Position numbers and translations under genes: made by a program. From Candidatus Micrarchaeota archaeon (GTDB lineage: Archaea; Micrarchaeota; Micrarchaeia; Micrarchaeales; CABMGC01), in NCBI GenBank assembly GCA_021803945.1, contig JAJZKW010000001.1, positions 8,517 to 72,516 on the forward strand: 64,000 nt of DNA. Direction: 5' to 3'. Numbering within the stretch: the first letter of the stretch is position 1; every line of letters begins with the position of its first letter. The notes beneath the pieces were generated by a model. That model had not been told where the DNA came from, did no database searches, and saw nothing but the letters and a program-made list of their open reading frames with translations. This document shows, in pieces, positions 28,403 to 60,102 of the stretch.

Positions 28403-28588
28403 ACCTGCCCACAATTCCGCCTTCTGCACCCGGTTCATTTCGATTACATTATCACCAGAAAAAATCCACGGCTGGGTTAGGCAAAGATTTAAATACCTTC
28501 CGAGATATATTATAGCGTTTATCATCGGCAAATTCTATATTTGCTTAGATTTATCCAGCGTTATATTGAACAATATTTGGTGTACTAT

Positions 28589-29854
28589 ATGGCAGACAAA
28601 CCGCACATGAACCTGATATTCATAGGGCACATAGACCACGGGAAGTCAACAACGGTCGGAAGGCTTCTGTACGATACGAAATCGGTGTCAGAGCAGGACA
28701 TGAAGAAGCTGAAGGACGAGGTTGCGAAGTACAACAGGCCTACATTCGAGTTCGCATTCGTTATGGACCAGCTCAAGGAAGAGAGAGAAAGAGGAATAAC
28801 AATAGACATAATGCACAGGGACTTCCAGACCCCTAAGTACTACTTCACTATCATAGATGCGCCGGGGCACAGGGACTTCGTGAAGAACATGATCACAGGC
28901 GCGAGCCAGGCAGATGCAGCAGTGCTCGTAGTCTCCACTCCTGATGGTGTGCAGTCGCAGACAAGGGAGCACGCATACCTCGCAAGGGTGCTGGGCATAA
29001 GGCAGCTCATAGTGGGATTCAACAAGATAGATGCAGCCAGCTATGACAGGGCAAAGTTCGACGATGCAAAGAACAAGGTATCGGAACTGCTCAAGACAGT
29101 CGGTTATGACGTGACCAAGGTCCTTTTCGTTCCTTATTCCGCGCTTGAAGGGGTCAATGTATCATCAAAGTCGGACAAGCTCGGCTGGTACACCGGACCT
29201 ACTCTTCTAGAGGCTCTTGACACACTGCAGCTTCCAGAGAAGCCGCTGAACAAGCCGCTAAGGCTTCCTATACAGGATGCATACAGCATATCTGGATTTG
29301 GAACGGTTCCAGTGGGAAGGGTGGAAACAGGAGTCATGAAGGTCGGAGATTCAATAATAATAATGCCTGCAGGAGTCAAGACTGAGGTGAAGAGCATAGA
29401 GATGCATCATCAGCAGCTGCAGAAGGCAGAGCCTGGAGACAATGTAGGATTCAACATAAAAGGAGTTGACAAGAAAGACGTAAAGAAGGGAGACGTAGTC
29501 GGCCCTTCGGACAACCCCCCTTCCGTAGTATCAGAGTTTACTGCGCAGATAGTGGTGATAAACCACCCTACCGCAATAGCTCCAGGATACACTCCAGTAT
29601 TCCACATACACACTGCACAGATGGCAGCAACCATAACGGAGATAACTGAGAAGAAGGACCCGAAGACCGGCCTTACCGTGCAGAAGAATCCGGAGTTCAT
29701 AAAGAACGGCGATGTTGCCATAGTCAAGGTAAAGCCTACCAAGGCGGTATGCATAGAGAAGTTCAGCGAATTCCCTCCTCTTGGCAGGTTCGCAATAAGG
29801 GACATGGGCCAGACTGTTGCAGCCGGAGTAGTGCTTGACATAGTGAAGAAGTGA
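28589..29854 (+). CDS. tuf: Translation elongation factor EF-1 alpha
   Basis: '[14 protein letters not shown]', 'DAPGHRDF', 'NKID' GTPase motifs. Start set at 'MADKPHMNL'. Confidence 0.97.
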
Positions 29855-39248: not shown

Positions 39249-39255
39249 TAACAAT

Positions 39256-40341: not shown

Positions 40342-41137
40342 AATAAGCAAGCTTATTTTGGTAAAATTAGGCGGTAGCGTAATAACAGATATAAATAAAC
40401 CTAAAACCCCAAAACTGCACGAAATACGACGACTTATAAATGAGATTAAAGTAGCAGGAAAACATAAAAAAATAATTATCGGACATGGAGGAGGATCATT
40501 TCCGCATGTCCCAGCGCAGAAATATAAAGTGAGTTTTGGATTTATCAACTCAAAAAGCGCGATTGGAACATCTGTTACACAACGTTCGGCATCAGAGCTT
40601 CACCACATCATAATAAATGAGATGATAAAAGCAGGCCTATCTGCGTTATCTTTTCCTCCATCGAGCGGCGCTGTTGCAAATAAGAAAAGAATAATCAGTT
40701 GGAATACAAAAGCGATAGTAAAAGCGCTTTCGTTAAACTTCGTGCCTGTAGTCTATGGAGACATAACGCTTGACAATAAACAAGGCGTGTGTGTAGTATC
40801 AACAGAAGAAGTATTCAGATATCTTGCCACAAAACTCAAACCAACAAAGATAATAATAGGAACAGATGTAGATGGTGTCTTTAGTGCAGATCCTCAAACT
40901 GTGAAAGACGCAAAGATCATAACAAAGATAGGAACATCTGATATTAGAAAAGTTGCATTCTCCTCAATTAATAGAAAATACAACGTTACTGGAAGCATGC
41001 AAAGCAAAGTAAAGCTTCTATGTGAGATATCAAAGAAGAACTCAGTAACATGCCAAATAGTGAATGCGCGCATCCCAGGAAGGATACACGATGCGATATT
41101 GGGAAAACCTGTTATCTCCACTATAATTAAATTCTAA
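40307..41137 (+). CDS. Isopentenyl phosphate kinase (amino acid kinase fold)
   Basis: 'LILVKLGGSVITD', 'IIGHGGGSFPHVPAQKY', 'VVYGD', 'IIIGTDVDGVFSADP'. The true start may be downstream of 40307 (35-nt overlap with the preceding gene). Confidence 0.8.
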   Translation: MQTPLFHSKGDKISKLILVKLGGSVITDINKPKTPKLHEIRRLINEIKVAGKHKKIIIGHGGGSFPHVPAQKYKVSFGFINSKSAIGTSVTQRSASELHHIIINEMIKAGLSALSFPPSSGAVANKKRIISWNTKAIVKALSLNFVPVVYGDITLDNKQGVCVVSTEEVFRYLATKLKPTKIIIGTDVDGVFSADPQTVKDAKIITKIGTSDIRKVAFSSINRKYNVTGSMQSKVKLLCEISKKNSVTCQIVNARIPGRIHDAILGKPVISTIIKF

Positions 41138-43596: not shown

Positions 43597-44259
43597 GTGC
43601 GCATTAAAAAAGAATTACACCTCAAGCTCGATATAGGGTACAAATCGGTTCCAGGAGCCGACCATGCGTACGGAGACAGGGTACTGGCGGACAGCTCCAG
43701 AGGCCTCTTTGCCGTAGCGGACAGCTACGGGATTTCGCCAAACAGGGGCAGCGTGCCTTCGAGGCTGGCGACGTACATGCTTGCAGACTTCTTCAAGGGA
43801 GACCTCCGGGAGGCGATATCAATGGTTGACAGGACGATGTCAAAGCTCTGCGAGTTCGATGATGGAATCGGCGCTGCGACGATGACTGCAGCATTCATAA
43901 AAGAGGGCGTGCTGAGCGTTGCAAACGTAGGCAACAATCCAGCTTACCTCCTAAGGGATGGAACCATGGCAAAGCTGTATACTCCTGAAAAGCCCAGACG
44001 GGACGGCAGCCTTTCGCAGCATATACTAAGCGGGGAAGGAATCCGGCTGCATATGTGCCAACGTGCCCTGAAGCCTGGAGACATAGTAGTCATAGCATCC
44101 GACGGTGTCCTAAACATACTCAATCCCAGAGACATGCTCCTATTTTCCAGCATGCGCATGGATGCGGCAGCCTCCAGCCTGATAGATCTCTCGCAGGCCA
44201 TCGAAAAAGGAGCAGGCGATGACAAGAGCATAATACTGGTGAAGGCAGAGCGTGCCTGA
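43597..44259 (+). CDS. PP2C/SpoIIE-like protein phosphatase domain protein
   Basis: 'LFAVADSYG', 'TMTAAFI', 'SVANVGNNPAYLLRDG', 'VIASDGV', 'DDKSIILV' follow the PPM block order. The usual 'GDSR' reads 'GNNP'. GTG start. Confidence 0.6.
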   Translation: MRIKKELHLKLDIGYKSVPGADHAYGDRVLADSSRGLFAVADSYGISPNRGSVPSRLATYMLADFFKGDLREAISMVDRTMSKLCEFDDGIGAATMTAAFIKEGVLSVANVGNNPAYLLRDGTMAKLYTPEKPRRDGSLSQHILSGEGIRLHMCQRALKPGDIVVIASDGVLNILNPRDMLLFSSMRMDAAASSLIDLSQAIEKGAGDDKSIILVKAERA

Positions 44260-46020: not shown

Positions 46021-46197
46021 CGGGCTGCCCAAAAAGGGCACGCAAAGGCTTTTAAGCATGACTTCGCCTGCTGACGTCTAACCGATGCAAAGCTTTAAAT
46101 ATCTAATTATGCATCATTTATCCACTAGTTTTTAGCGGGTTTTAAAAAATTTGTTATGGGATTTGCCGCATGTTTGCGTTATATTTAAGTGATTGAA

Positions 46198-47226
46198 ATG
46201 GCCAAGACGAACAAGATTCAAAAGAAGGGCAGCCAGGGCAGACCTAGCGATATAGAGATAGTGAACCAGGCGGAATTCGAGCCGCGAAGCGCAGATACCC
46301 CAAGGCCTATGCGGCCAGGGGAGATAAAGAAATGCGCGAGCTGCGGAAGCGCAGACATAATATTCGACAATGAGAAGGGAGAGTACGTATGCAACAACTG
46401 CGGCCTGATCATAGAGGAGAACGTCACGGATTCAGGGCCTGAGTGGAGGGCATTCGACGCGGACCAGAGGAATGCGAGGGCAAGGACAGGGGCACCGATA
46501 AAGTACATGAAGCCGAACAAGGGCCTTGTCACAGAAATAGACATGTACAACAAAGATATAAGAGGAACCAAGCTCCCATCGAAGAGGCAGGCACAGCTCT
46601 ACAGGATGAGGAAATGGCACAAAAGGGCCAGCATAGCGAGCTCCAGCGAGAGGAACTACCTCATAGCGCTTCCTGAGCTGAACAGGGTTGCAAGCTATCT
46701 CGGCCTACCTGACAACATAAGGGAGCAGGCAGCGCTGCTCTACAGGCAGTGCGTCAAGAACAACCTAATAAGGGGAAGGCCTATAGAGACTGTTGTAAAT
46801 GCTGCCCTATATGCGACGTGCAGGTCAGCAGGCATGCCAAGGACATTGGACGAGATTGCAAATGTTTCAGGCGTGCCAAAGAAGGAGATAGGCAGGTCCT
46901 TCAGGGTGATAGCGCATGAGCTCAGGCTGAAGATACCGCTTACAGACCCGTCAAGCTATGTTCCCAGATACGTATCAGCGCTCAAGCTGAGCGGAGATGC
47001 GCAGGAGAAGGCAGTGCTTCTACTCAAGCAGGCCATGAAGAAAGGGCTTGTTAGCGGAAGGAGCCCGACAGGAGTCTCTGCGGCTGCAGTATACATCGCA
47101 GGAGCGCTGGTAGGCGAGCGGAGGACGCAGAAGGAGGTAGCCGACGTTGCAGGAGTGACAGAAGTTACCATAAGGAACAGGTACAGGGAGCTCAAGAAGG
47201 AACTCGACATAGACGTAAACCTGTGA
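46198..47226 (+). CDS. tfb: Transcription initiation factor IIB (TFB)
   Basis: Zn ribbon 'CASCGSADIIFDNEKGEYVCNNCG', B-finger/linker region and two cyclin repeats ('AALYATCR...PRTLDEIA', 'AAAVYIAG...RTQKEVADVAGVTEVTIRNRY'). Confidence 0.95.
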   Translation: MAKTNKIQKKGSQGRPSDIEIVNQAEFEPRSADTPRPMRPGEIKKCASCGSADIIFDNEKGEYVCNNCGLIIEENVTDSGPEWRAFDADQRNARARTGAPIKYMKPNKGLVTEIDMYNKDIRGTKLPSKRQAQLYRMRKWHKRASIASSSERNYLIALPELNRVASYLGLPDNIREQAALLYRQCVKNNLIRGRPIETVVNAALYATCRSAGMPRTLDEIANVSGVPKKEIGRSFRVIAHELRLKIPLTDPSSYVPRYVSALKLSGDAQEKAVLLLKQAMKKGLVSGRSPTGVSAAAVYIAGALVGERRTQKEVADVAGVTEVTIRNRYRELKKELDIDVNL

Positions 47227-47669: not shown

Positions 47670-48956
47670 TTGGTGGATAAAAAGAGGGTACTCGGGCTCC
47701 ATAAGAAGGCTGGAGGCAAGATAGAGGTCATGCCGAAGGTCATGATAGACAATGAGGGCGAGCTTTCCATATACTACACCCCAGGAGTGTCATATGTAAG
47801 CGAGGAGATAAAGGGCAATGCAGACAAGGCATACGACTACACCTCGAAATCCAATACCATTGCAATAGTCTCTGACGGGACGAGGATACTGGGCCTTGGG
47901 GACATAGGTCCGTACGCAGGGATACCAGTTATGGAGGGCAAGGCCGCCCTTTTCAAGAAGTTCGGCGGAGTGGATGCAGTGCCTTTATGCATAGGCACAA
48001 CGGACGAGGACGAGATCGTAAAGCTCATCAAGGCAATATCGCCGAACTTCGGCGGCATAAACATAGAGGACATAGAATCGCCTAAGAGCTTCAGGATAGT
48101 GGAAAGGCTATCAGAGGAGCTTGACATACCAATATTCCACGACGACAGGCACGGCACCGGGGTTGTCGCTCTGGCTGCCCTTCTGAACTCCTTGAAGCTA
48201 ACAGGCAGAGGCAAGGGCGCGCGCATTGTGGTAAACGGGGCGGGATCGGCAGGGTTCGGCATAGCAACCCAGCTAATAAGTTCTGGATTCAGGAACATGG
48301 TCGTGCTTGACAAGAACGGCGCGATATACAAGGGCAGGGAGAGCGGAATGAACCCGTTCAAGGAGGAGATAGCCTCGCATACAAACGCGAGAAGGGTTAG
48401 CGGCGATTTGGCAGACATGCTAAAAGACGCAGACGTGCTGATAGGCGCGTCTGAGAGGGGCGCGTTTGGAAAGGACCACATAGCGCTCATGAACGGCAAG
48501 CCGATAGTATTCGCGCTTGCGAATCCGTATCCAGAGATAGAATATGACGAGGCGAAAGATGCAGGAGCGTATATCGTGGCTACAGGGAGAAGCGACAAGC
48601 CCAACCAGGTCAACAACATACTGGCATTCCCAGGGATAATGAGGGGGCTTTTAGATTCAAGGGCTAAGGCGGTTTCCTTCAAGATGCTGCACAACGCCGC
48701 TGTCACAATCGCCAGGAGCGTGGGCAGGAGACTCAGCACAGAGTTCATAATCCCATACGCATTGGAGAGGGGATTCGCTTTCAATACTGTGCCTAAGGTT
48801 GCCGCAAGCGTCGCGGAGTCCGCAGCAGCAGAGGGGCTCGCGCGCAAAGCGATCTCTTTTGAGTCGGAATTCAGGAATGCAGAGAGGCTGATCAGGAGAT
48901 ACGACAGCATGGAGCGCATATCCAAGAGATTCCTCGTTGGAGAAGGCAGGAGATAG
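47670..48956 (+). CDS. NAD(P)-dependent malic enzyme
   Basis: 'YYTPGV', 'GLGDIGPYAGIPVMEGKAALFKKFGG', 'FHDDRHGTGVV', 'VVNGAGSAGFG'. TTG start. Confidence 0.9.
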   Translation: MVDKKRVLGLHKKAGGKIEVMPKVMIDNEGELSIYYTPGVSYVSEEIKGNADKAYDYTSKSNTIAIVSDGTRILGLGDIGPYAGIPVMEGKAALFKKFGGVDAVPLCIGTTDEDEIVKLIKAISPNFGGINIEDIESPKSFRIVERLSEELDIPIFHDDRHGTGVVALAALLNSLKLTGRGKGARIVVNGAGSAGFGIATQLISSGFRNMVVLDKNGAIYKGRESGMNPFKEEIASHTNARRVSGDLADMLKDADVLIGASERGAFGKDHIALMNGKPIVFALANPYPEIEYDEAKDAGAYIVATGRSDKPNQVNNILAFPGIMRGLLDSRAKAVSFKMLHNAAVTIARSVGRRLSTEFIIPYALERGFAFNTVPKVAASVAESAAAEGLARKAISFESEFRNAERLIRRYDSMERISKRFLVGEGRR

Positions 48957-49003: not shown

Positions 49004-49468
49004 ATGGTAGAAGTAAACGGGCCTGTCCCAAAAGTCTCCCTGTATGATACAGAGATGAACCGTGTCAAAGTGCAGAAGGTCAGCAAGGGCAAGTCGACTG
49101 TGATAGCCTTCTTCCCGGCCGCATTCACAAGCGTTTGCACAAAGGAGATGTGTACCTTCAGCGATGCAATTGCGAAGTTCAACTCCCTTGACGCGAATGT
49201 AATAGGCATAAGCGTTGACAGCCCGTTCTCAAACAAGGCCTTCAAGGAGCACAACAAGATAAACTTTACTCTCTTGAGCGACTTCAAGAGGAAGGCTGTC
49301 AAGAAGTTCGGCGTAGAGCTCAAGGACTTCAACGGCCTGAAAGGGTACATATCAGCCAAAAGGTCTGTTTTCATAGTGAATAAAGAAGGCCTCATAACAT
49401 ACAAGTGGGTTACAGAAGACCAGGCAAAAGAGCCAAACTACGAAGAGATAAAAACCGCCCTTGCCTGA
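49004..49468 (+). CDS. Peroxiredoxin (AhpC/TSA, Bcp-like)
   Basis: 'VIAFFPAAFTSVCTKEMC' peroxidatic Cys motif, 'GISVDSPFSNKAF'. Confidence 0.9.
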   Translation: MVEVNGPVPKVSLYDTEMNRVKVQKVSKGKSTVIAFFPAAFTSVCTKEMCTFSDAIAKFNSLDANVIGISVDSPFSNKAFKEHNKINFTLLSDFKRKAVKKFGVELKDFNGLKGYISAKRSVFIVNKEGLITYKWVTEDQAKEPNYEEIKTALA

Positions 49469-49539
49469 AAACCCTCAGTGTAAAATAGGTTCAACGCCTA
49501 ACAAAAATATTTATAAATAAATATGTAGTATTAAATTTC

Positions 49540-50226
49540 GTGACCAATATGGCCAAGAATCCGACTTTGTTGCAGAAGGCTTTTGTGGAAGGGCTGGGTA
49601 CGTTCATCCTGGTGTTCATAGGTGCAGGAGCTATAATATCGTCAGGACATTTCTTCTCAGGATCGGCTCAGCTGCTTGTGATAGCGCTTGCATTGGGGCT
49701 TGCGCTTGGAATCGCAGTGACAATTGCATTGGACATATCCGGTGGGCACATAAATCCGGCAGTCACCATAGCCATGCTATTGACTAATAGGATAAAGGCG
49801 TATGACGCCCTGGTGTACATAGTGGCGCAGCTCATAGGGGCAGTCATAGGCGCAGGAGTTCTTCTCATAGTCCCGTCCTCGATATCTGCAGGGACGTTCG
49901 GTATGACTGTACTCAACCCTTCAGTCAGCGTGTTCCAGGGAATAGTCATAGAGGCGCTCATAACATTCGTACTGATGATTGTAGTATTCGCAACAACGGT
50001 TGACAAGAGGACGGTCAAGGTAGGCGGATTTGCAGTTGGCCTGGCCCTGACATTGGGAATACTGTTTGCAGGACCGCTCACAGGAGGATCCGCAAATCCT
50101 GCAAGATCGTTCGGCCCTGAGCTGATAACAGGAAACTTCGCGAACTGGTATGTATACTGGATAGGGCCGATAATCGGAGCGGTGCTGGCAGCGCTCATAT
50201 ACCAGTATGTCCTGCTCAGGAAGTGA
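49540..50226 (+). CDS. aqpM: Aquaporin / MIP channel
   Basis: Two NPA boxes ('GGHINPAVT', 'GGSANPARSFGP') and six TM helices. Confidence 0.9.
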   Translation: MTNMAKNPTLLQKAFVEGLGTFILVFIGAGAIISSGHFFSGSAQLLVIALALGLALGIAVTIALDISGGHINPAVTIAMLLTNRIKAYDALVYIVAQLIGAVIGAGVLLIVPSSISAGTFGMTVLNPSVSVFQGIVIEALITFVLMIVVFATTVDKRTVKVGGFAVGLALTLGILFAGPLTGGSANPARSFGPELITGNFANWYVYWIGPIIGAVLAALIYQYVLLRK

Positions 50227-50352
50227 GTAGCAAAACAACAGGCGTATGTGTTATTTTGTGCAATTCCGTTGCATATAAATATCACCCTAGCCATATCTAT
50301 ATTCATATCCAATAACCGCCCCACGGTTATATCTGGAATCTAGGTCGAATCT

Positions 50353-50997
50353 ATGGCTAATAAAACCACCAAAATCCAACTATCAAAACCTGAGTTATCT
50401 GCATTACTGGCCGCAGCTCGCAAAGACGGTTTCGATGCAGGTTTTGAATCTGGTACCAAATCTGCGTTTGCGATTGATGAGAAAACCGGGCTATACACTG
50501 AACGCAGGTTTAAGGAGGATCTCGTACACAATATAAATCGTTTCCGTAGAGATAACATCACTGCAACAATATTGTTTATAGATGTAAACAATATGAAGGG
50601 CCTTAACGATACATATGGCCACGATCTAGTTGATGGTTTATTAATCAAACTTGCAGAAGTTATGAAATCTTCTATAAGAAATACGGACAATGTATACAGG
50701 AGATACATGACCGGAGATGAATTCATGATTATACTTGAACATACAGAAACTTCCGGCGCGCAAAAATTCATTGGAAAATTAAATCTTGCGATCGCAAATG
50801 ATCCCGAATTGAGTCAATACGGATTAAGCGTTTCTATTGGAACATCAAGCATAATTGACATTGTTAATGCCGAAGGTGTTAAGGTTATACATGATCCTAA
50901 TCAGCTAGTCACGACGATGAGTGAAATTGCAGATGCAGCTATGCGAGCTAATAAAATGTCACACAAGCAAGCACTTGTCAAGGCGCAAAGAAAGTAA
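50353..50997 (+). CDS. Stand-alone GGDEF-domain nucleotide cyclase homolog (TGDEF variant)
   Basis: 'DEKTGLYTERRFKEDL', 'ILFIDVNNMKGLNDTYGHDLVDGLL', 'YRRYMTGDEFMIIL', 'LSVSIGTS', 'ADAAMRANK' match the ordered conserved GGDEF blocks. There is only about 45 aa of N-terminal sequence and no sensor domain. Confidence 0.75.
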   Translation: MANKTTKIQLSKPELSALLAAARKDGFDAGFESGTKSAFAIDEKTGLYTERRFKEDLVHNINRFRRDNITATILFIDVNNMKGLNDTYGHDLVDGLLIKLAEVMKSSIRNTDNVYRRYMTGDEFMIILEHTETSGAQKFIGKLNLAIANDPELSQYGLSVSIGTSSIIDIVNAEGVKVIHDPNQLVTTMSEIADAAMRANKMSHKQALVKAQRK

Positions 50998-51052
50998 TGC
51001 ACAATCTCATTACAAACCAAACCTAAAATATTATTAGGAATTCTAATATTAT

Positions 51053-51334
51053 TTGAGTATATATTTTTTCAGTATAAAGAAGCAGATAAAACCAAATAAA
51101 AAGAAAAATAAAGATAAATATTTGAAAGAAAACAATATTGGTGATGAATTGTCACAAATAAAATTCGGAGATCGTCCGCATGGTTTTAGTTTTGTTGGTG
51201 ATAAAAAAGGCCTGCTGGATTTTGCAAGAGCAATAAATGCAATATGCCCAGATAAGCGGTTTGTGGATTTGACTCCACAAGACAAAGAGCTTCTGATTAT
51301 GATGGTAAGACCAATAAAGCCTAGGAACGATTAA
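51053..51334 (+). CDS. Hypothetical small protein (weak call)
   Basis: 93-aa ORF with a Lys-rich, low-complexity N-terminus. No motif recognised, and it may start internally or be non-coding. Confidence 0.2.
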   Translation: MSIYFFSIKKQIKPNKKKNKDKYLKENNIGDELSQIKFGDRPHGFSFVGDKKGLLDFARAINAICPDKRFVDLTPQDKELLIMMVRPIKPRND

Positions 51335-51842
51335 ATACCTGCATGCAAAAATAAACCGATCACGCAATCCATTCCGAACAAGATAATTCTGCGTTGTCGA
51401 AACAAGTCATACTAACAATATTCTAGTAATTCTAATATAGTTTAGAATTGCTCTTTATCTGCGTTTACAGCCCTTATTATCATAGCCAAGTAAATCATCA
51501 AAAGGAAATTATCAGGCTTTGCAAGGCCAATCCTGCGCGATATTTTGACGTCGGAAGACCGTCTTGGTTACACTTCCACTATTCCTCCAGGCGTGAGAAT
51601 ACGCATTCCAAATTTCTGGTTTAATTCTAACTACTTCCATATATTTGGCATAAAAACAGCCCGAAGAGGAAAATCATATCCTTTTCTGCAGTTTTAGCCA
51701 TTAAGGGGGGTGGCATGACCAGGACAAGGCATTTTCCAAAAATACGGAATGCAGGGCTTTACTGAAATCATTTTTTGCGCTAAAATTATGGAAGCCGGCA
51801 GTCTTAGATGCATCTATATGGTGATTTCAATTAAATGAAAGC

Positions 51843-52523
51843 TTACCTTCTCAGCAACTCCAACATCCTGCTTTTCAGTAATTCTCCCGCCTTCTTGTCA
51901 TTTTCAACCGCTTTCCCCATACTTCTTGCAAAATCATCCGGCCATATGGTCATAGGATCTATCAATACCGGTTTTCCATCCACAACTATTATGTTAGTAT
52001 AATTCAGATCGCAATGGCCAACCCCATATTCATGTAGTCTGTTTATAACGCCTATTATCTGCTCTCCCAGATTGACAAATGCAACTACCTTGCTGCGGTC
52101 CCTTTGCGCCTCGATATAATACTCGAGTAGGGCTTTTCCCTCCAAGTATTCAATGACACTCCCTACAGGATTATAATTAATATCGAGTCTTACATATGCC
52201 AATGCTATCGGAGTTGCTGCATTGTCTGGTAATAGTGAATGCAATAGGCGTAAATGCTCAAATTCACCCGGCCTAAAACCCAATGTCCCCCGGATCCCCG
52301 AAGCAGTAGTGAACGGTGTCTTGCTTCCTGTGACTGCGTCTGTCCTTTCTTTTTTGACGATCGGGCCAAGGTATGCTTCAGTCCAACCCGGCCTATAACA
52401 TAATTTTAGGAACAACTTTTCCTTAGTATATCCATGCCCAGCCAGATTCTGGAATAATGCTACGGCATTTGGCGCAGGTATCCTTAACCCTAGCTCAGTA
52501 CTCTGTCTTAATTGTGTAGTCAT
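51843..52523 (-). CDS. Protein kinase-like fold protein (RIO/Kdo/Bud32-like catalytic loop)
   Basis: 'HEYGVGHCDLNYTNIIVVDGKPVLIDP' gives an HxDLxxxN catalytic loop plus an 'IDP' metal-binding position. No clear glycine-rich loop was recognised. Confidence 0.5.
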   Translation of the reverse strand: MTTQLRQSTELGLRIPAPNAVALFQNLAGHGYTKEKLFLKLCYRPGWTEAYLGPIVKKERTDAVTGSKTPFTTASGIRGTLGFRPGEFEHLRLLHSLLPDNAATPIALAYVRLDINYNPVGSVIEYLEGKALLEYYIEAQRDRSKVVAFVNLGEQIIGVINRLHEYGVGHCDLNYTNIIVVDGKPVLIDPMTIWPDDFARSMGKAVENDKKAGELLKSRMLELLRR

Positions 52524-52801
52524 GCTATTTCACACTATTTCCACCAGTTTTGATATATATTACTTTTACTCTCTTGGACAATAGTCTAATTCTAATAACC
52601 TCTTGGAAATTCTAGAAAGATTTAAGTCTAATATTCTGCCTTCCTTTTTCCCGAAGGTTTCCATAAGATATGCCTGTTGAATGCTCCTCCAAAGTCGTTG
52701 AAATTGTAGATAACCGATGTTCACCAATCCACCGAAATTATAAACGGCCAAAGCAAATCACAAACTATTTATATATGCATATGCATATACCTATTGATGC
52801 A

Positions 52802-53023
52802 ATGGTAAAAGTAATCTCAGTATCCGATGAGGCATATGCACTTCTTAAAAGGCTAAAAGGCCAAAAACTGTCGTTTTCGGAGGCAATAAAGGAAGCCGTA
52901 TACAAGAATAAACAGGACAAGACTGCAATAATGGGTCTTTTCGGATCATTGAAAGGCAAGATCAATGCCAAACGATGGAAGGCGCAACTATATGCGGATC
53001 GCGAACGGCCCTGGACCGGGTAA
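52802..53023 (+). CDS. vapB: VapB-type antitoxin (same family as 18619-18858)
   Basis: 'MVKVISVSDEAYALLKRLKGQKLSFSEAIKEAV'. Start moved to ATG 52802. Immediately upstream of a PIN gene. Confidence 0.65.
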   Translation: MVKVISVSDEAYALLKRLKGQKLSFSEAIKEAVYKNKQDKTAIMGLFGSLKGKINAKRWKAQLYADRERPWTG

Positions 53024-53031
53024 GCGATAGG

Positions 53032-53409
53032 ATGGTAATAATCGATACGGATGTATTGATAGACTTCTTGGAAGGCGACAATAGCGTCCGCGAGGCGGTA
53101 TACAAGCGAATGCAGTATGGCAAGGTAGCTACCACAATAATAAACCAGTATGAACTATTCAAAGGCGTCGAATCAAGAGAACAGGAAGATGCGATAGATG
53201 CACTCCTGTCAAAGTTGGAGATTTATGTCATGGATCATGCGTCCATGAAAAACGCCGCGCTGGCATTCCAGGCATTGAAGAAGTCCGGGTATCTTATACC
53301 AGAGGCAGACATTTTGGTAGCAGGTATTGCGCAGTCGCACGGGGAGACCATACTTACAAGAGACCATCACTTTAAGAAGCTGCAGATGATAAAAACCGAG
53401 ATAATATGA
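53032..53409 (+). CDS. vapC: PIN-domain toxin VapC
   Basis: 'MVIIDTDVLIDFLEG', 'EADILVAGIA', 'ILTRDHHF' PIN acidic residues. Start at ATG 53032. Confidence 0.85.
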   Translation: MVIIDTDVLIDFLEGDNSVREAVYKRMQYGKVATTIINQYELFKGVESREQEDAIDALLSKLEIYVMDHASMKNAALAFQALKKSGYLIPEADILVAGIAQSHGETILTRDHHFKKLQMIKTEII

Positions 53410-53510
53410 TCAGTTAAATTACAGCCAAATCAAAACACATCTACCCATGTTTACAGTTTACCTTATAAGTTTTCATAAAGAAAGTTTGTCTGCAGATTCA
53501 AAGGTCTTGT

Positions 53511-54251
53511 ATGCACGTGAAAACCAAAGTACTCATATATGCTGCCGCAATAGTCATTGTACTAGCGTACGGATCAATAGGCAGCTACCTGCTGAGCCAA
53601 AATAATGGATTCAGTACTAAGATAAACAGCCCCATAACAGCGCTTTACTTCACTATAGTGACCGTTTCCACAGTGGGATACGGTGACATAGTCCCAGTGA
53701 CGCGAACCGCAAGGGCATTCACAATGGTCCTGATCATAGCAGGACTCAGCGTCTTCCTCAGTGCAGTTACTGTTTTATCAGGTGATATAATGGATTCGAG
53801 AATAGACAAGCTTTCAGGCAGGATATCTGGGTTCGAGAGGAGGATGCTTAACAAGCACACCATACTGATTGGTGCAGACGCCGCAAACCTCTCCCTTGCA
53901 GAAAAGATGAGGGCAGAAGGCAAAAAGTTCGTATTTTTGACTTCTGACAAGGTAATAGTGGACAAGCTGAGGGAAGACGGATATAATGCCTTTATCGCAG
54001 ACCCGACATCGAACAAGGACCTCCTGTTATACAACCTTGACAAGGCGAAGACGATAATAATAGACCTCAAGGAGAACTCGCGCACTTTCTACACCATACT
54101 GCTTGCAAGGAAGCTGTCAAAAAGCGCAAGGATAATTGCCATAGTCCAGACAAAGGAGATAGAAGAGCACGTGAAGGCGTTCAATCTCAATGTAGAAATA
54201 ATAAATCCGTCAGACAAGATAGCCGATATTGTCAACAAGAACATCAAATAG
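53511..54251 (+). CDS. 2-TM potassium channel with C-terminal RCK/TrkA-N domain (MthK-like)
   Basis: Selectivity filter 'TVSTVGYGD' between two TM helices, then a Rossmann-like 'HTILIGADAANLSLAEKMRAEGKKFVFL'. Confidence 0.85.
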   Translation: MHVKTKVLIYAAAIVIVLAYGSIGSYLLSQNNGFSTKINSPITALYFTIVTVSTVGYGDIVPVTRTARAFTMVLIIAGLSVFLSAVTVLSGDIMDSRIDKLSGRISGFERRMLNKHTILIGADAANLSLAEKMRAEGKKFVFLTSDKVIVDKLREDGYNAFIADPTSNKDLLLYNLDKAKTIIIDLKENSRTFYTILLARKLSKSARIIAIVQTKEIEEHVKAFNLNVEIINPSDKIADIVNKNIK

Positions 54252-54411
54252 CGCAAGCGCCTTGCAACAACTACTGGCTAATCCTGTTGGCCTGTTGATT
54301 AGGAAGCCTGCCCAAACCGATGATCATCGCAGCGCCCAGACAGCTAAAAACGCATAGGTTTTAAAAGCTTGGCCAGAAAAAAAGCAACTTATATATATCA
54401 CAAAAGGAAAA

Positions 54412-54681
54412 ATGACATACGGTTGTACCATGCCAGAACAAATAGCCAAACGTAAAAGTCCTAAAATATTGGAAGCTGCTTTCGGAGTCAGCACATTGGC
54501 AACAGTAGCAGGGTTTGCCGGCTATTTAGGCGTATATGTGACAGAGCCATTATTTCATCTATCAAATAAGATACCAACAGAGATGCTTAGGTACGGGACA
54601 ACGGCGCTAATTGTCTCCTTCGGAGCTCTTCTTCTATCTGGTTTTGTAGAAAGCAATTTCAAGGGGTCAAAAAGGCCTTAA
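54412..54681 (+). CDS. Small membrane protein
   Basis: 89 aa with two hydrophobic helices. No family recognised. Confidence 0.3.
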   Translation: MTYGCTMPEQIAKRKSPKILEAAFGVSTLATVAGFAGYLGVYVTEPLFHLSNKIPTEMLRYGTTALIVSFGALLLSGFVESNFKGSKRP

Positions 54682-54870
54682 TCCAGCATACATTGCTCTG
54701 CTTATACATGCTCCCTTTTTTGTCTGCCAAATCTACTATAAATCCTTAAATACTCTACATCACCCATAGTTTTGGAATGCAATGCAAAGCCGACAACAAT
54801 TAAATACGCACTCACTCAAATATGTGTATGGCAGTCAAACCTGCTTTTATGTGCGGAATGATGATTGGGC

Positions 54871-57800
54871 ATGTTTAAACTTAATGTGATTACAGCCTTC
54901 TCTATTTTGATACTCGGCCTTGTGCTTATCCCTTCTGCGGTCCAGGCAAACCCTTGCGGAACGTTTCCTTCAGGCATGTCGTACTGCCAGCAGCTCTCTA
55001 TAGCAAACCAGCAATCAAGCGCAGTTGCTGCGGGAACGCAGGTGATGCTAAACTACAACGCCCTCGCGTACAATACCTACCTTGCATCGAATCTGATGAA
55101 CATCGAGGTGTATAATTCAATATCCGGGAACGTTCTGTATACGTGGCTCGAGGGCAACACCCTGAACGAGAACCAGGGTACCCTTCTTTCCACGTCAGCA
55201 AACATACTATACTGGATTAACCTCGACACCCCTATAGCTGCAAGCAGCACGGACTCGAATATTTACCTCGCGTACTTCCCAACCACAAACGACCTGTTCA
55301 ATGGGAACAACCTTGGCGCAGCCCCGCAGCTCTACTGCGCAAGCGGATGCCCTACTATTAGCTACAATGCAATAGACAACGGTCAAAAGGTGTTTCCGCT
55401 GCTATACCAGAACTTCGCAGGAACCTTAGTTCCTACTGGATGGGCCAATACTGGAGGGGTCATAAGTAATGGAGTAACGCTGAGCAGCTCTGTAGGTAAT
55501 TCAATGGTCACATCTGCGTTATACGGTCTTAATTCGACTCAGATAGAGGACATATACGGAAATCTTCAAGGATCTAGCACTGCAACAAACATTTATTTTG
55601 GCTATACAAACAGCAATAATGCAGACTGTCTTGGCTGGGGCGTAGGCGGGAACGGAGTTACTGGTGCACCAGCTTCAAATTCCATCATATATAATTTTTA
55701 TGGTAATACGTGTTCACATAGCTCTGCAATTTTTGGAAACCTAAATCCTTCAGAAACAACAAATGCCGTATTCACTACTTATTGGCCCTCGTCAACATCC
55801 ATAATATCAAGTTTTGACTACGGCCCTACCAACGAGATAAGCAGCGCTTATACGGCACAATTGCCAATCGGATCATATGTGGATGGAGGCACTGGCGCTT
55901 TCATGCAGTGGGTCCGCCTTCGAACGTACCCTCCAAACGGAGTTCAGCCTACTGTAACGTTTGGGTCTGTGCAATCCATAAATGCGCCATCATGTACAGT
56001 ATCGATAACCAACCCCTCAAATGCAATAGTAGATGCAGGCCAGTACGAGACATTCATAGCCTCGAATACCAACTGCGTAAGCCCGTATACCTACAATATA
56101 CTCGTGGTTAACTCGATTACGCCTGCAACCATAACACACAACGACCTTGTCACAGGAAGCACTTCATCTTCTATAACATACACCTTCCAGGCTGCAAGCT
56201 ACGATGTCTCCAACAGTCCTGAGGAGGCAAACGTAGTGCTGACGGACTCAGGGACAAATACAGTGACTTCGGGATATTCATCAACATTTACCATAAACCC
56301 CGCACTGGTGGCCAGCGCATCTCCGACTCCAACCTCCCCAACAATATATCAGGGCCAATCTGTCGCGCTGTCGATATCCGCTCCCACTGCAGGAACATCT
56401 CCATATTCATACCAGTGGTATTCAGGCTCATCTTCGACTTGCACATCGGATTCTCCCATTCCAAACGCAGCATCGCTGTCATACACGGCCTCGCCTTCAG
56501 CAAATACATATTATTGCGTAAAGGAAACGGACAATGTAAATGAAGTAGTCTATACCGGCACAGATTTGGTAACGGTCCTCCCAGCCACGAACTTCTCAGA
56601 GACGGGACTGCCTGACGGCGCAGTCTGGACTGTCACATACAACAGCGTAAGCACTAATACAGTAGCATCCAACTCTATATACTTCCACTCCTCCCTAAAC
56701 ACCGGGTCTACCTATTCGTTCATTATAAACAATAGCATAATAAGCGGGGTGCCATACCTGCCCACGCCTTCGGGAGGAAACCTACAGGCAGGCAACGCGA
56801 TCAACATAAAATTTGCACCGCAGAATGTAATAACCCCAAGTCCCACAGAGCGTGTGATAATCCCATTATACATATATCCAAATGCCACTTACTCCCTCCT
56901 TCCGAGCTACATGCCCGGCCTTTACGGCGTTGTGATAAACCCAGACAGCGGTTCAGGCGCAAGCATAAATACGGACTATGCATCTGCAGCCGCGAAGCTG
57001 GAATCCAAAGGAGTGAAGGTCTTCGGGTACGTGCCAACAGGCTACGGAGCAGATCCGCTGTCATATGTCGAAGCCAACATAGTGAACTATTACAGCTGGT
57101 ATCATGTAAACGGGATATTCTTCGATGAGGCGAATTCCATATGCACTACATCAACAGAAAACTACTACAGCTCGCTATACGGGTACATAAAAGGCAATTA
57201 CCTGAGCAATACAGTCATACTAAATCCAGGGGCGCCGAGCGGACCATGCTACCAGTTCTATTCAGATATAATAAACGCATTTGAAAATCCGTATTCAGAT
57301 TACATAAACAGCGTCTATTCTCCTGATTCGTGGGCTTCCAATACCCTGCCATCTCACTTTATGAATATAATCTATGGCGTCCCGAACAATACCGTAGTGC
57401 AGCAGACAATCAACCTTGCCGACAACAGGAGCATTGGCTACGTGTACATCACCAATACTATGGGTGTTTATTCCATATTGCCACCATATTTTGCCCAGGA
57501 AGCAAACATGGTAAATCCGCTGGTAATAAAAAATCCTGTTGCAAGCACAGAGACTGCTGCCAACAGCCAGGCAATATCCTTCAATGTGATTGCAACCGGA
57601 GGGTCTGGCGCATACACATACAACTGGTTCGGCTTACCTCCAGGGTGCACTTCTCCAAACGCGAATTCCCTTAGCTGCACTCCCTCATCTCCAGGCACCC
57701 ATACAATATCAACCCAAGTCACTGACTCATATGGGTTTACCAACTCGTCGTCTCAGATAGTTTTTGATTCAGGAATAATATACAAGGTTCCGATAACGTT

Positions 57801-60102
57801 TACAAACTCCCAGACAAGCAATACGCCAAACCCATGGCAGCAGCCAGTAACAGTCAACAGCCTTGATTACCAAAATGTTGAGAATTCAAATATAATCAAT
57901 ACCGTATTTTTCTATCAAAACGGCACAATCATAAATTCATGGCTTGAAGGAAACGTGCTCAACGAGCAGCAGACAACAGGTCTTGCGACCTCAGAGAATA
58001 GCTTATATTACCTCAAACTGCCGAGTATCCCTGCTTCAAGCAGTCTAACCGTATATATGGGATTTGCTGGGAATACCATAAACCTGATGAATCCTGTTTC
58101 TACCGGAGAAGCTCCGCAGCTGACCACGCAATACGCACAATACGACAACGGGGGGCATGTATTCAGCTATTACCAAAACTTTTCCGGAACTGTTCTATCA
58201 TCTCTTTGGCAAAACCCAAATTCCTATACCGCAATACAGAACAACGGGCTTACTCTGACTGCTCCGTCAGGAGGGGGCCTATTCTATTATAACGTGAACA
58301 TGCCCAGTTCATATGCCGTTGATGCTTACATGAAAGGGAATTCTCTCCTGAGCTCTACAGTTACAGACCTCATGAGTATGGGAGCCGGAGGCAGCCTGAA
58401 CAATTACACAGAGCTATACCTCTCCAACTCATTGCCTTCAACCTGGATACTACAATCCGGCGGAAATTCGGGAGGTGGTACAGTTGTAGGGACCGAAAAT
58501 AACTATTATGTTATGACATTGAGCGGCACTCCGTCTAGCGTATCGTCCTTTGTAAATTACACCCCAATCAGTAGCCTCACAGGAGCCAGCAACTCTATCA
58601 ATCCAAATATCGGCGTATACACAAGCGGCGCAGGCGGAAACTCTTACTTTCTTGATTGGATGCGCGTCAGGTCTTATCCTCCAGGAGGAGTAACGCCATC
58701 TGCGACTTTCGGATCCCTGTCATCCACTACAATCCCTTCCATATCATCTACGCCTTCCCTGCCGAAGACCCTCGATACAGGCCAGACCATAGCATTCAAC
58801 GCGCTTGCAACAGAAGGCAGCGGGTCGTATACGGCTTACAACTTCCTTATATTCAACTCAGCAACCGGAATACAAGTAGGTAACTATCTCACAACGTCCA
58901 ATTCCTTCGCATATTCTATACCTTCATCAGAAGTGGGAAACACCCTGGCAGTAAACGTATTGGTTACTGATTCGAATGGGGAATCTGCCAATTCTATATT
59001 TACAGGAATGCTAACAGTAAACACCCAGCCTACGATATCGATCACTCCGTCGAAGACCTCGATAGACGCAGGACAGACAATAACGATAGCGAATACTGTC
59101 ACTGGAGGCACTGCGCCGTTCACCTACTCATACACAGTCAACTCGATGACAGGGGTCACGATAGGCAGCAACCAGATAACATTCGCGGATGCGGGCACAT
59201 TCAACGTCCTTGAATCAGTGACAGACACTGCAGGAGTCACAGCGTATTCGGCCAACAGCGTCATAACAGTCGCAGCGGCTCCACCTGCTCCCTCACCTCC
59301 AAGCAGCGGCAATGGAGGTTATAACAATAACATAGCCACTGTTACCATATCCAATAAGTTAAATGTTGCAATAGTGTCAAACCATAATAACATCGTGCAT
59401 AATCTTGCCTTCAATGTGACTATCATGATAAGAAGCGTGTTTTCAAACTCGGTAAGCATGTCATTTAAAAATATGACAGGAAACAAGACCATTCCAGGAT
59501 GCAGTTCCAATCTATATTCAATCAACGTCTCTATAATTCCCACTTCAACCGAGCCCATTACCACAGACCTGACCATACCTTATACATACACTTTCAACAA
59601 GGACGGTTTGGTGCCATTCATATGCACAGACAGAGAATGGGTGCCATATACAAATTACAGTATAAACCTGCAAAACCATACAATGACACTTAAAAATATT
59701 CCTTCAGATCCTATAATCGGATTGCTTTATCCAAATTATACTTCCAACGCTACGACTACCACTGTAACTACAATTCCTCAGGTAAACACAACAGTACCGA
59801 CAACATCGATACCTGTAGCACCAAAGACCACATCAATCATATACTCTACAGTAGTAACCACTATTCTTCCAGTTGTCCAGAGCCCTGTATCTGAAAATTC
59901 TAGCCTGTTTACGGCCATTGCAATACTACTGGTAATTATTGCTGTATCAATTTATCTCATTTTCAATAAAATGCGAGAGTCAAAAAGAAGAGATGAGGCA
60001 AAACGAGAAATAAAAAAGAAAGCTGAGGCAAAGACCTCGAAGGTAGACAAAAATCAGAGAAAGCTAATAAGCCACAAGGATAATCAAAAAGCAAAATCTT
60101 GA
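54871..60102 (+). CDS. Giant (about 1740 aa) cell-surface protein with DUF2341/LamG, Ig-like and Spherulin-4-like modules and a TM anchor
   Basis: Signal peptide 'FKLNVITAFSILILGLVLIPSAVQA'. Two DUF2341-like modules ('...NIEVYNSISGNVLYTWLEGN...IYLAYFP', '...VFFYQNGTIINSWLEGN...VYMGFAGN') each end in 'W(V/M)R(L/V)R(T/S)YPP.GV.P..TFGS'. Several roughly 100-aa Ig-like repeats carry 'GG(S/T).(A/P)(Y/F)TY'. The C-terminus has a Thr-rich linker, TM 'FTAIAILLVIIAVSIYLIF' and a Lys-rich tail. Confidence 0.85.
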   Translation: MFKLNVITAFSILILGLVLIPSAVQANPCGTFPSGMSYCQQLSIANQQSSAVAAGTQVMLNYNALAYNTYLASNLMNIEVYNSISGNVLYTWLEGNTLNENQGTLLSTSANILYWINLDTPIAASSTDSNIYLAYFPTTNDLFNGNNLGAAPQLYCASGCPTISYNAIDNGQKVFPLLYQNFAGTLVPTGWANTGGVISNGVTLSSSVGNSMVTSALYGLNSTQIEDIYGNLQGSSTATNIYFGYTNSNNADCLGWGVGGNGVTGAPASNSIIYNFYGNTCSHSSAIFGNLNPSETTNAVFTTYWPSSTSIISSFDYGPTNEISSAYTAQLPIGSYVDGGTGAFMQWVRLRTYPPNGVQPTVTFGSVQSINAPSCTVSITNPSNAIVDAGQYETFIASNTNCVSPYTYNILVVNSITPATITHNDLVTGSTSSSITYTFQAASYDVSNSPEEANVVLTDSGTNTVTSGYSSTFTINPALVASASPTPTSPTIYQGQSVALSISAPTAGTSPYSYQWYSGSSSTCTSDSPIPNAASLSYTASPSANTYYCVKETDNVNEVVYTGTDLVTVLPATNFSETGLPDGAVWTVTYNSVSTNTVASNSIYFHSSLNTGSTYSFIINNSIISGVPYLPTPSGGNLQAGNAINIKFAPQNVITPSPTERVIIPLYIYPNATYSLLPSYMPGLYGVVINPDSGSGASINTDYASAAAKLESKGVKVFGYVPTGYGADPLSYVEANIVNYYSWYHVNGIFFDEANSICTTSTENYYSSLYGYIKGNYLSNTVILNPGAPSGPCYQFYSDIINAFENPYSDYINSVYSPDSWASNTLPSHFMNIIYGVPNNTVVQQTINLADNRSIGYVYITNTMGVYSILPPYFAQEANMVNPLVIKNPVASTETAANSQAISFNVIATGGSGAYTYNWFGLPPGCTSPNANSLSCTPSSPGTHTISTQVTDSYGFTNSSSQIVFDSGIIYKVPITFTNSQTSNTPNPWQQPVTVNSLDYQNVENSNIINTVFFYQNGTIINSWLEGNVLNEQQTTGLATSENSLYYLKLPSIPASSSLTVYMGFAGNTINLMNPVSTGEAPQLTTQYAQYDNGGHVFSYYQNFSGTVLSSLWQNPNSYTAIQNNGLTLTAPSGGGLFYYNVNMPSSYAVDAYMKGNSLLSSTVTDLMSMGAGGSLNNYTELYLSNSLPSTWILQSGGNSGGGTVVGTENNYYVMTLSGTPSSVSSFVNYTPISSLTGASNSINPNIGVYTSGAGGNSYFLDWMRVRSYPPGGVTPSATFGSLSSTTIPSISSTPSLPKTLDTGQTIAFNALATEGSGSYTAYNFLIFNSATGIQVGNYLTTSNSFAYSIPSSEVGNTLAVNVLVTDSNGESANSIFTGMLTVNTQPTISITPSKTSIDAGQTITIANTVTGGTAPFTYSYTVNSMTGVTIGSNQITFADAGTFNVLESVTDTAGVTAYSANSVITVAAAPPAPSPPSSGNGGYNNNIATVTISNKLNVAIVSNHNNIVHNLAFNVTIMIRSVFSNSVSMSFKNMTGNKTIPGCSSNLYSINVSIIPTSTEPITTDLTIPYTYTFNKDGLVPFICTDREWVPYTNYSINLQNHTMTLKNIPSDPIIGLLYPNYTSNATTTTVTTIPQVNTTVPTTSIPVAPKTTSIIYSTVVTTILPVVQSPVSENSSLFTAIAILLVIIAVSIYLIFNKMRESKRRDEAKREIKKKAEAKTSKVDKNQRKLISHKDNQKAKS
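55090..55391 (+). repeat. 302-nt tract 100% identical to 62079-62380 (copy 1)
   Basis: Read directly. From AATCTGATGAACATCGAGG... to ...GACAACGGTCAAAAGGT the two paralogs are identical base for base, while the flanking coding sequence is only about three-quarters identical. Confidence 0.9.
56854..57505 (+). other. Spherulin-4-like (glycoside-hydrolase-like TIM barrel) domain inside the giant surface protein
   Basis: 'VIIPLYIYPNATY...GVVINPDSGSG...GVKVFGYVPTGYG...YYSWYHVNGIFFDEA...ILNPGAP...NAFEN...GYVYITN' resembles the spherulation-specific family 4 pattern (IxPLYxYP...NPxNGPG...GYVxTxY...GIFxDE). Confidence 0.55.

Follow-up and report, generated by a model that had tools for sequence, protein, structure and literature searches.

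The only accepted archaeal protein with a GGDEF domain is RCIX2274 of Methanocella arvoryzae (10.1101/2021.11.05.467447; PMC5847659), and a protein in which a REC domain is joined to an inactivated GGDEF domain has been reported from two 'Ca. Micrarchaeum acidiphilum' genomes, with contamination left open (Galperin et al. 2018, PMC5847659). GGDEF genes carried by archaeal metagenome-assembled genomes (MAGs) are suspected of being contamination (10.1101/2021.11.05.467447; PMC5847659; PMC10086821; PMC10249747), and archaeal-MAG genes for GGDEF, EAL, and HD-GYP domains "need to be confirmed in archaeal contigs" (PMC10086821). We analyzed a 64-kb stretch of a Candidatus Micrarchaeota contig (JAJZKW010000001.1), hereafter the window, that encodes a 214-aa protein with a GGDEF domain, hereafter the GGDEF protein. 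A preliminary description of the window, made from the sequence alone, had regarded GGDEF diguanylate cyclases as absent or extremely rare in Archaea; the literature agrees with this, but the domain is not wholly unprecedented in Micrarchaeota, an inactivated REC-GGDEF protein having been reported in 'Ca. Micrarchaeum acidiphilum' (PMC5847659). Both RCIX2274 (REC-PAS-PocR-GGDEF-HD-GYP) and the Micrarchaeum protein, the latter from the same phylum as the window, are multidomain and signal regulated according to their descriptions, whereas the GGDEF protein stands alone and possesses a nearly intact catalytic set.

Among bacterial diguanylate cyclases, PleD, WspR, and DgcZ have in common with the GGDEF protein the domain and its fold, the metal- and guanine-binding residues, the phosphate-binding Lys, and an RxxD motif in the columns of the I-site, the product-inhibition site. 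The GGDEF protein differs from them in lacking an N-terminal sensor, receiver, or stalk, in its TGDEF motif, in a hairpin that is longer by two residues, in the substitutions D79N and G93V, in a long C-terminal helix, and in its archaeal host. The fold is also that of the Protein Data Bank (PDB) entry 6d9m, which we take to be the Hypr cyclic GMP-AMP (cGAMP) synthase GacA, from which the GGDEF protein differs by Asp94 in place of Ser and by having no REC domain. VCA0965 of Vibrio cholerae (AGDEF) and ECA3270 of Pectobacterium atrosepticum (SGDEF) are like the GGDEF protein in that the first Gly of the motif alone is replaced by a small residue while the other catalytic residues are intact, but they have N-terminal membrane or sensor regions, and the Thr of the GGDEF protein is beta-branched. 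Cyclase activity is known from natural enzymes with AGDEF and SGDEF, and tolerance at this position is context dependent (PMC3974145). The 214-aa protein belongs to the known GGDEF family in an unusual host and is not a new kind of system. The analysis establishes its domain, fold, conserved catalytic residues, archaeal location, and foreign composition. Our preferred reading, to which we give a probability of roughly one-half, is that this horizontally acquired, stand-alone GGDEF of a Micrarchaeota chromosome is encoded by a real archaeal gene and keeps cyclase chemistry.

GGDEF domain and active site

The preliminary description had proposed a 214-aa open reading frame (ORF) with ordered GGDEF blocks, and every block that it quoted was located in the translation: D42-E-K-T-G-L with the following R-R-F, FIDVNNMKGLNDTYGH (residues 75-90), TGDEF (120-124), SIG (161-163), and ADAAMRANK (193-201). 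The start at 50353 is the earliest start codon past an in-frame upstream stop, which rules out a longer N-terminus. Using the Pfam hidden Markov model (HMM) for GGDEF, PF00990, we obtained a clear match of 87.5 bits (cutoff 23.8; E = 1.1e-24) over residues 40-204 and profile positions 2-158 of 161, a score far past chance, and TIGR00254 gave 86.6 bits (cutoff 37.4). All further Pfam matches were below threshold, for example Guanylate_cyc at 17 bits. Scores with the NCBIfam "equivalog" models of named cyclases (DgcS, SiaD, PleD, AdrA, and others) were far under each cutoff, placing the GGDEF protein outside all named orthologous groups. A phmmer search of the PDB detected 47 sequences at E <= 1e-3, which were named diguanylate cyclases or other GGDEF-domain proteins; the top match was 6d9m (E = 5.8e-14, ~30% identity), entered in the fold-search table as a Geobacter GGDEF fused to T4 lysozyme.

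An AlphaFold2 (AF2) model built from a 21-sequence alignment had a mean predicted local distance difference test score (pLDDT) of 88.5 and a predicted TM-score of 0.78. When the model was compared with the PDB using Foldseek, the top 50 matches were all GGDEF domains with a probability of 1.00 and target-normalised TM-scores up to 0.84, and the predicted fold is that of a GGDEF domain (nucleotide-cyclase palm-like). Taken together, the HMM scores, the PDB matches, the AF2 model, and the Foldseek comparison make the GGDEF assignment of the 214-aa protein secure. Neither Pfam nor AF2 detected a sensor, receiver, transmembrane segment, coiled-coil stalk, or other Pfam domain, confirming the earlier view of a stand-alone, minimal GGDEF protein. 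The N-terminal tail is short, as had been stated, although it amounts to about 39 aa rather than ~45 aa since the Pfam domain starts at residue 40; in the AF2 model it consists of a single short helix (residues 12-24, 13 residues) and a low-confidence linker (residues 26-36). The C-terminal helix of the model is unusually long (residues 182-213).

Residue statistics were obtained from an alignment of the GGDEF protein with 395 related GGDEF domains, and motif spacing was compared over 390 domains. Twenty of the 26 columns conserved at >=75% are retained (D42, T45, G46, R66, D77, K82, N85, D86, G89, H90, D94, L97, A101, R109, D112, G121, E123, F124, L128, and A136), and the six departures from the consensus are L44K, N49T, D79N, F81M, G93V, and G120T. 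Retention of these 20 columns in a protein with no relative above ~46% identity is indicative of past selection on the catalytic core. In the block that binds substrate and metal, D77, K82, N85, and D94 are kept and D79N and G93V deviate, D79N being common to 34 of the 395 related domains. N85 matches an Asn in 382 of the 395 relatives, and D94 matches an Asp in 379. We take D77 to be equivalent to the metal-binding Asp D327 of PleD, N85 and D94 to its guanine-binding pair N335 and D344, D122 and E123 to its acidic motif residues E370 and E371, and K201 to its phosphate-binding Lys K442, with K205 at the position of the partner residue R446. The metal-binding and acidic motif positions D77, D122, and E123 are thus present in the GGDEF protein. 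K201 is conserved and the partner Arg position is occupied by Lys205, a conservative replacement, according to our own alignment of ADAAMRANKMSHK to the consensus ADxALYxAKxxGRN. Both the DNA and the translation bear out the earlier reading of the motif as TGDEF in place of GG(D/E)EF.

It had also been noted that the RNTD motif lies 7 rather than 5 residues upstream of TGDEF, and the I-site had been doubted on that account. The spacing was found to be correct: seven residues separate D112 from T120, a distance seen in only 11 of the 390 relatives, 333 of which have five. The doubt was overstated, as R109 and D112 align with the I-site columns, where 340 of the 395 related domains (87%) have R and 335 (86%) have D, and the two extra hairpin residues fall after R109-D112 and before the motif. 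An I-site is therefore probably present.

Archaeal host and probable foreign origin

Consistent with the placement of the gene in an archaeal genome by the preliminary description, EF-1alpha, ribosomal protein S10, the transcription factor TFIIB, an archaeal-type S-adenosylmethionine synthetase (PF01941), and deoxyhypusine synthase are encoded on the same DNA, as are leucyl-tRNA synthetase, mevalonate-pathway genes, and tricarboxylic acid cycle enzymes. EF-1alpha and S10 lie 20 kb upstream of the GGDEF gene. All of the nearest named relatives of EF-1alpha are labelled as Micrarchaeota groups (Table 1), which identifies the host as a DPANN archaeon.

Nine contigs on record encode the identical GGDEF protein, the longest contig of each block lying between <2 kb and the 50-200 kb class; the longest in the cluster record is 145.6 kb. 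The same join was found in at least six independent assemblies. Several samples are represented by ENA megahit assemblies and several runs by Logan assemblies, and there is one NCBI MAG. The gene order common to the independent contigs is TFIIB, malic enzyme, peroxiredoxin (Prx), MIP, GGDEF, small ORF, kinase-like gene (on the minus strand), VapB, VapC, and K+ channel. Independent copies of the locus are 99.94-100% identical to the window at the nucleotide level. The repetition of these joins across assemblies excludes a chimera for practical purposes, and all copies of the GGDEF gene come from one clonal population. The gene lies in a genuine Micrarchaeota (DPANN) chromosome; the contamination or mis-binning that had been raised as a concern is very unlikely, as is chimerism, the archaeal linkage having been reproduced in ENA, Logan, and NCBI assemblies.

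We searched for a GGDEF-less allele among contigs with identical copies of two flanking genes, those for Prx and the K+ channel, and found only contigs collinear with the window. An odd gene call in one contig (L091) was considered as a variant allele and rejected as a partial-gene artefact. The sole protein variant among the copies is A199P, caused by a single-nucleotide polymorphism (SNP) located 60 nt from a contig end. In one ENA contig (L094), positions 1-107 contain two short inverted pieces of window sequence (54810-54890 and 52474-52503), after which the contig is collinear from 51335; this represents either an assembly artefact or a minor rearranged variant.

The G+C content at third codon positions (GC3) is 0.335 in the GGDEF gene and 0.287 in the next ORF, compared with 0.55-0.68 in core genes, including the flanking genes for malic enzyme (0.648), Prx (0.639), MIP (0.55), and the K+ channel (0.551). 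This difference points to a foreign origin, and on the basis of composition the GGDEF gene looks horizontally acquired.

Sequence searches identified no close relative. A word-indexed search of 5.8 billion clusters returned the GGDEF protein itself and otherwise only GGDEF proteins at <=36% identity. An exhaustive phmmer search of 1.84 billion representatives returned 213,641 GGDEF relatives, of which only the GGDEF protein itself was found at E <= 1e-30; the next-best match scored 115 bits with 32% identity, and the top identity over any stretch was ~46%. A scan of genome contigs produced only two distant bacterial GGDEFs (34-36% identity). Related Micrarchaeota genomes are present in the databases searched, indicating that sampled relatives have no orthologues. 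The named neighbours in sequence space are all bacteria, from assorted phyla, and no donor can be named; the suggestion that homologs might be common in related archaea was not borne out.

A virus or plasmid origin was considered and rejected: no tblastn-confirmed relative was found in IMG/VR, GGDEFs of bacterial plasmids are <37% identical, and the PHROGs matches are generic GGDEF matches. We also considered a "mini-GGDEF" subfamily with three stand-alone metagenomic GGDEFs of 213-228 aa, P0152, P0189, and P0231, which are of similar size to the GGDEF protein and have N-terminal tails of 45-55 aa. P0152 and P0189 resemble the GGDEF protein (D-V-N) in that D-V-N or D-V-A replaces D-x-D, P0152 and P0231 have SGDEF, and P0189 shares with the GGDEF protein a two-residue hairpin insertion and a "DP.L..YG"-type block. 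However, they are only 27-32% identical to the GGDEF protein in a MAFFT alignment, and each is found on a contig of 1.4-2.1 kb whose other genes are uninformative except for one cis-prenyltransferase. The subfamily was rejected when a profile search showed each of the three to be an orphan without close relatives.

The accessory island and other features of the window

The GGDEF gene had been described as sitting in an A+T-rich accessory patch with a kinase-like gene and a VapBC pair, and GC3 and Pfam agree with that description (Table 1). Upstream of the ATG of the GGDEF gene there is a candidate archaeal TATA element, and AGGT is found 8-11 nt upstream of the ATG. Many other genes in the window have A/T-rich elements at a similar upstream distance together with GGTG-like motifs, and the host-like character of these elements makes expression of the GGDEF gene plausible. 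In a scan for bacterial sigma-70 promoters and terminators, sites were no commoner than in shuffled sequence, the model being bacterial and the host archaeal.

Table 1. Positions in the window of the GGDEF gene, its sequence elements, the surrounding island, and the archaeal marker genes
Feature	Positions	Strand	Evidence or remarks
GGDEF protein ORF, stop included	50353..50997	+	214 aa, ATG start; ORF list, Pfam, TIGR00254, AF2, Foldseek
N-terminal tail, residues 1-39	50353..50469	+	Pfam domain start at 40; AF2 secondary structure and pLDDT by block
GGDEF domain, residues 40-204	50470..50964	+	Pfam envelope; Foldseek TM-score <=0.84 vs isolated GGDEF domains
Substrate- and metal-binding block D77-V-N79-N-M-K82-G-L-N85-D86-T-Y-G89-H90-D-L-V93-D94	50581..50634	+	395-domain column statistics
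RxxD motif R109-N-T-D112 in the I-site columns	50677..50688	+	DNA read directly; column statistics
A-site motif T120-G-D-E-F (ACC GGA GAT GAA TTC)	50710..50724	+	DNA read directly
Candidate archaeal TATA element TTATAT	50327..50332	+	~23 nt upstream of GGDEF ATG; sequence
Accessory island, low GC	50227..53510		Between MIP aquaporin and K+ channel, both of core composition; GC and GC3 per gene
MIP aquaporin, upstream flank	49540-50226		Pfam
K+ channel, downstream flank	53511-54251		Pfam
Small ORF	51053..51334	+	93 aa from TTG (or 70 aa from in-frame TTG at 51122); gene call in all assemblies
Kinase-like protein	51843..52523	-	226 aa; Kdo/Pkinase/RIO similarity weak, Pfam E = 8e-4 to 4e-3, below gathering scores
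VapB antitoxin and VapC (PIN) toxin pair	52775..53409	+	Downstream edge of island; PF02697 46.1 bits, PF01850 47.4 bits
EF-1alpha, host-placement marker	28541..29854	+	Nearest named relatives 82-97% identity: Micrarchaeaceae, Micrarchaeia, or Micrarchaeota MAGs
TFIIB (TFB), archaeal marker	46189..47226	+	3 kb upstream of GGDEF gene; PF00382 145.8 bits, PF08271 60.4 bits

A small ORF is located 55 bp downstream of the GGDEF gene on the same strand. It had no match in Pfam, PHROG, PADLOC, or the PDB, and its AF2 model, made from a single sequence, was uninformative (pLDDT 53.5). The small ORF is a possible co-transcribed partner of the GGDEF gene, and its own status as a gene is uncertain. Its A/T-rich, Lys-rich 5' part may be non-coding. 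A T-run at ~51065-51071 could be the terminator of the GGDEF gene. A 20-nt direct repeat (TAGGAATTCTAATATTATTT, 51035-51054; TAGTAATTCTAATATAGTTT, 51424-51443) brackets the small ORF and could correspond to duplicated promoter elements or to the footprint of a small mobile unit. The 508-bp gap that follows the small ORF (51335-51842) has neither a called gene nor an Rfam match.

The kinase-like protein gave weak matches in PADLOC that involve the kinase domain only. A PP2C/SpoIIE-type phosphatase of 220 aa and core composition is encoded at 43597-44259 (+) and, with the kinase-like gene, hints at Ser/Thr phospho-signalling. A SiaABCD-like arrangement, in which a PP2C-like gene accompanies a kinase-like neighbour, was rejected: the GGDEF protein scored 74.7 bits with the SiaD model against a cutoff of 290, and the PP2C gene belongs to core DNA 6 kb distant. 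The similarity of the kinase-like gene is to Kdo/RIO kinases and presumably not to the SiaB type.

Toxin-antitoxin (TA) and abortive infection (Abi) genes are dense in the window (14611-15375, 18235-18609, and 52670-53409), comprising an AbiEii toxin, a lone low-GC PIN gene, and VapBC, and just outside the window start there are pairs of HicA and RHH-PIN type (L098, 10604-12014). Together these are many such genes for a DPANN genome of small size. Two divergent mevalonate gene sets, one at 38154-41137 (+) with a GHMP kinase, an MVD-like protein, and isopentenyl-phosphate kinase and the other at 41313-43534 (-) with a GHMP kinase and an MVD-like protein, are located in a low-GC block (GC3 0.30-0.41 vs ~0.6 in the core) and may represent a duplicated or horizontally acquired pathway. 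A 747-aa radical-SAM protein (11724-13967, +) has a LAGLIDADG-like segment (residues ~313-370) preceding its radical-SAM core (residues 444-579), with low GC at 12-13 kb; the segment may be an intein or a homing-endonuclease insertion. An archaeal ATPase_2 protein with an MCM_C winged helix (23417-24502, +; GC3 0.356), either Orc1/Cdc6-like or a mobile-element ATPase, is encoded beside a GNAT acetyltransferase in a further patch of low GC. Downstream of the island, a secreted or surface protein of 1745 aa with a Spherulin4 domain (54865-60102, +) has a paralogous stretch at ~61860-62432, ~7 kb downstream, that is 86-87% identical; it probably belongs to a repeated surface-protein family, and several assemblies break within its gene. 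The malic enzyme (47670-48956, +) has best JGI/ENA metagenome-contig matches that are only ~50% identical, many of them on contigs labelled human-gut or fermentation, and it may be of bacterial ancestry. When used as a synteny anchor in a metagenome scan, the malic enzyme yielded only bacterial malic enzymes at ~50% identity and no related Micrarchaeota loci.

Function and significance of the GGDEF protein

If the GGDEF protein acts as a cyclase, two copies would each bind GTP-Mg2+, with the metal held by D77, D122, and E123, the guanine by N85 and D94, and the phosphates by K201 and K205, and the copies would then pair in antiparallel orientation to condense the two GTP molecules into cyclic di-GMP (c-di-GMP). 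Since there is neither a sensor nor a dimerisation domain and since a beta-branched Thr replaces the first Gly of the motif, the hairpin is longer, and G93V is present, weak activity at best would be expected, and it would be governed mainly by expression level or by some partner that joins two copies. The retained RxxD (R109 and D112) would possibly allow product inhibition. Given that natural AGDEF and SGDEF enzymes are active, the presence of a small hydroxyl residue in first place in the motif would not be disqualifying.

Several observations weigh against retained cyclase chemistry. No accessory dimerisation domain or stalk is recognisable with Pfam or AF2, and isolated GGDEF domains are in general poor enzymes. 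Gly occupies the first motif column in 349 of the 395 domains, and the next states listed are Ser (14), a gap (10), Ala (7), Asp (5), and His (3); Thr is outside these six commonest states and is therefore at most as frequent as His. TGDEF satisfies neither the strict GG(D/E)EF motif nor the extended definition (G/S/A)G(D/E)EF (PMC3974145), a Ser substituted for the Ala at this position of VCA0965 abolished activity (PMC3974145), and the TGDEF motif is unreported, our literature search for TGDEF enzymes having found no paper. The motif-bearing beta-hairpin has two residues more than that of 85% of relatives, and G93V, which adjoins the guanine-binding Asp, is rare (4 of 395 related domains). 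As the preliminary description had observed for EAL, HD-GYP, and PilZ in the window, domain searches of the complete ORFs of the window and of 2 kb beyond it upstream found no EAL, HD-GYP, PilZ, or MshEN. Rfam detected only tRNA at the gathering score across the window and nothing at E <= 1 in 49400-55000, and there is thus no c-di-GMP riboswitch near the GGDEF gene. Only one clonal population carries the gene, so that selection in the host is not measurable. Finally, c-di-GMP has never been detected in an archaeon, and the cyclases are "almost exclusively" bacterial (PMC10249747). The stronger proposal of a functional archaeal diguanylate cyclase, by which a DPANN episymbiont would make c-di-GMP, as the first producer in Archaea, and would sense it with a receptor of unfamiliar type, and by which TGDEF and the extended hairpin would widen the concept of an active site, is doubtful.

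A serious rival to retained cyclase chemistry, although we consider it somewhat unlikely, is that the gene is a recent horizontal acquisition, brought in with a small island, and is catalytically dead or irrelevant in the host, kept as new and nearly neutral. An inert passenger of this kind would fit the extreme orphan status and the single clonal population, a composition that is unameliorated (GC3 0.335), the combination of noncanonical TGDEF, lengthened hairpin, and G93V, the lack of partner genes in the window, and the location among toxin-antitoxin genes typical of flexible islands. The sole variant, A199P, is non-conservative and adjoins the phosphate-binding Lys, but as one SNP so close to a contig end it is possibly an error. 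The ORF, however, is intact, each directly catalytic or substrate-binding residue is kept, and host-type expression signals are plausible. DPANN genomes are small, streamlined, and prone to losing useless genes, which also argues against an inert passenger.

It is improbable that the GGDEF protein is a degenerate, nucleotide-binding or protein-interaction module, serving either as a sensor of GTP or c-di-GMP or as a regulator of the kinase-like protein or of the small ORF product. Roughly one in four GGDEF domains has a degenerate motif, and several of these domains act as receptors (PMC3974145), an inactivated GGDEF fused to REC is reported in 'Ca. Micrarchaeum acidiphilum' (PMC5847659), the RxxD columns are kept, and the small ORF lies close by on the same strand. 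Receptor-type degenerate GGDEFs, however, usually lose several catalytic residues, whereas here the first Gly alone is lost and D77, D122, E123, N85, and D94 are kept. No other cyclase that could provide the ligand is known in the genome segment, and neither neighbour has a recognisable function.

We attach an even lower probability to a Hypr-like cyclase that would make cGAMP, c-di-AMP, or some linear dinucleotide instead and would possibly generate the signal for a defence or stress module of the island. The top PDB match is 6d9m, which we take to be the Hypr enzyme GacA, the hairpin and G93V alter the vicinity of the base-binding site, and VapBC and the kinase-like gene are present in the island, with other Abi and TA genes elsewhere in the window. 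The base-specificity position, which we take to be D344 in PleD and S348 in GacA, is Asp94 in the GGDEF protein and pairs with the Ser of "VGS" in the 6d9m alignment. The Hypr-defining Ser is therefore absent, its place being taken by the canonical guanine-specifying Asp found in 379 of the 395 relatives, and the Hypr-GGDEF-like option put forward in the preliminary description is not supported. Its suggestion of a defence component likewise found no positive support: the PADLOC defence models matched neither the GGDEF protein nor the small ORF, and no effector, including one with a nucleotide-sensing domain, is recognisable adjacent to the gene.

Bacterial contamination or mis-assembly, the default suspicion of the field for GGDEF, EAL, and HD-GYP genes in archaeal MAGs (10.1101/2021.11.05.467447; PMC5847659) and one that the exclusively bacterial named relatives and the atypical base composition might encourage, is essentially refuted by the location of the gene inside the window and the occurrence of the identical protein on contigs as long as 145.6 kb, by archaeal markers on both sides or nearby, by identical joins from two different assembly pipelines and several samples, and by the absence of any bacterial sequence >~46% identical that could serve as a contaminant source.

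The locus is a well-linked, reproducibly assembled GGDEF gene in an archaeal chromosome and a solid, though isolated, exception to the general absence of c-di-GMP enzymes from archaea, and its clean linkage and reproducible assembly settle the contamination question for at least one case. Its interest is limited by its occurrence in one population, with no partners in view, and by the possibility that the acquisition is functionally silent. The 214-aa protein is small and soluble, and direct expression and assay are feasible. If inactive, it would illustrate how accessory islands of DPANN archaea pick up signalling genes of bacterial type that are not then integrated. If active, it would show that c-di-GMP synthesis is transplantable into a reduced archaeal symbiont and would widen the tolerated motif to TGDEF.

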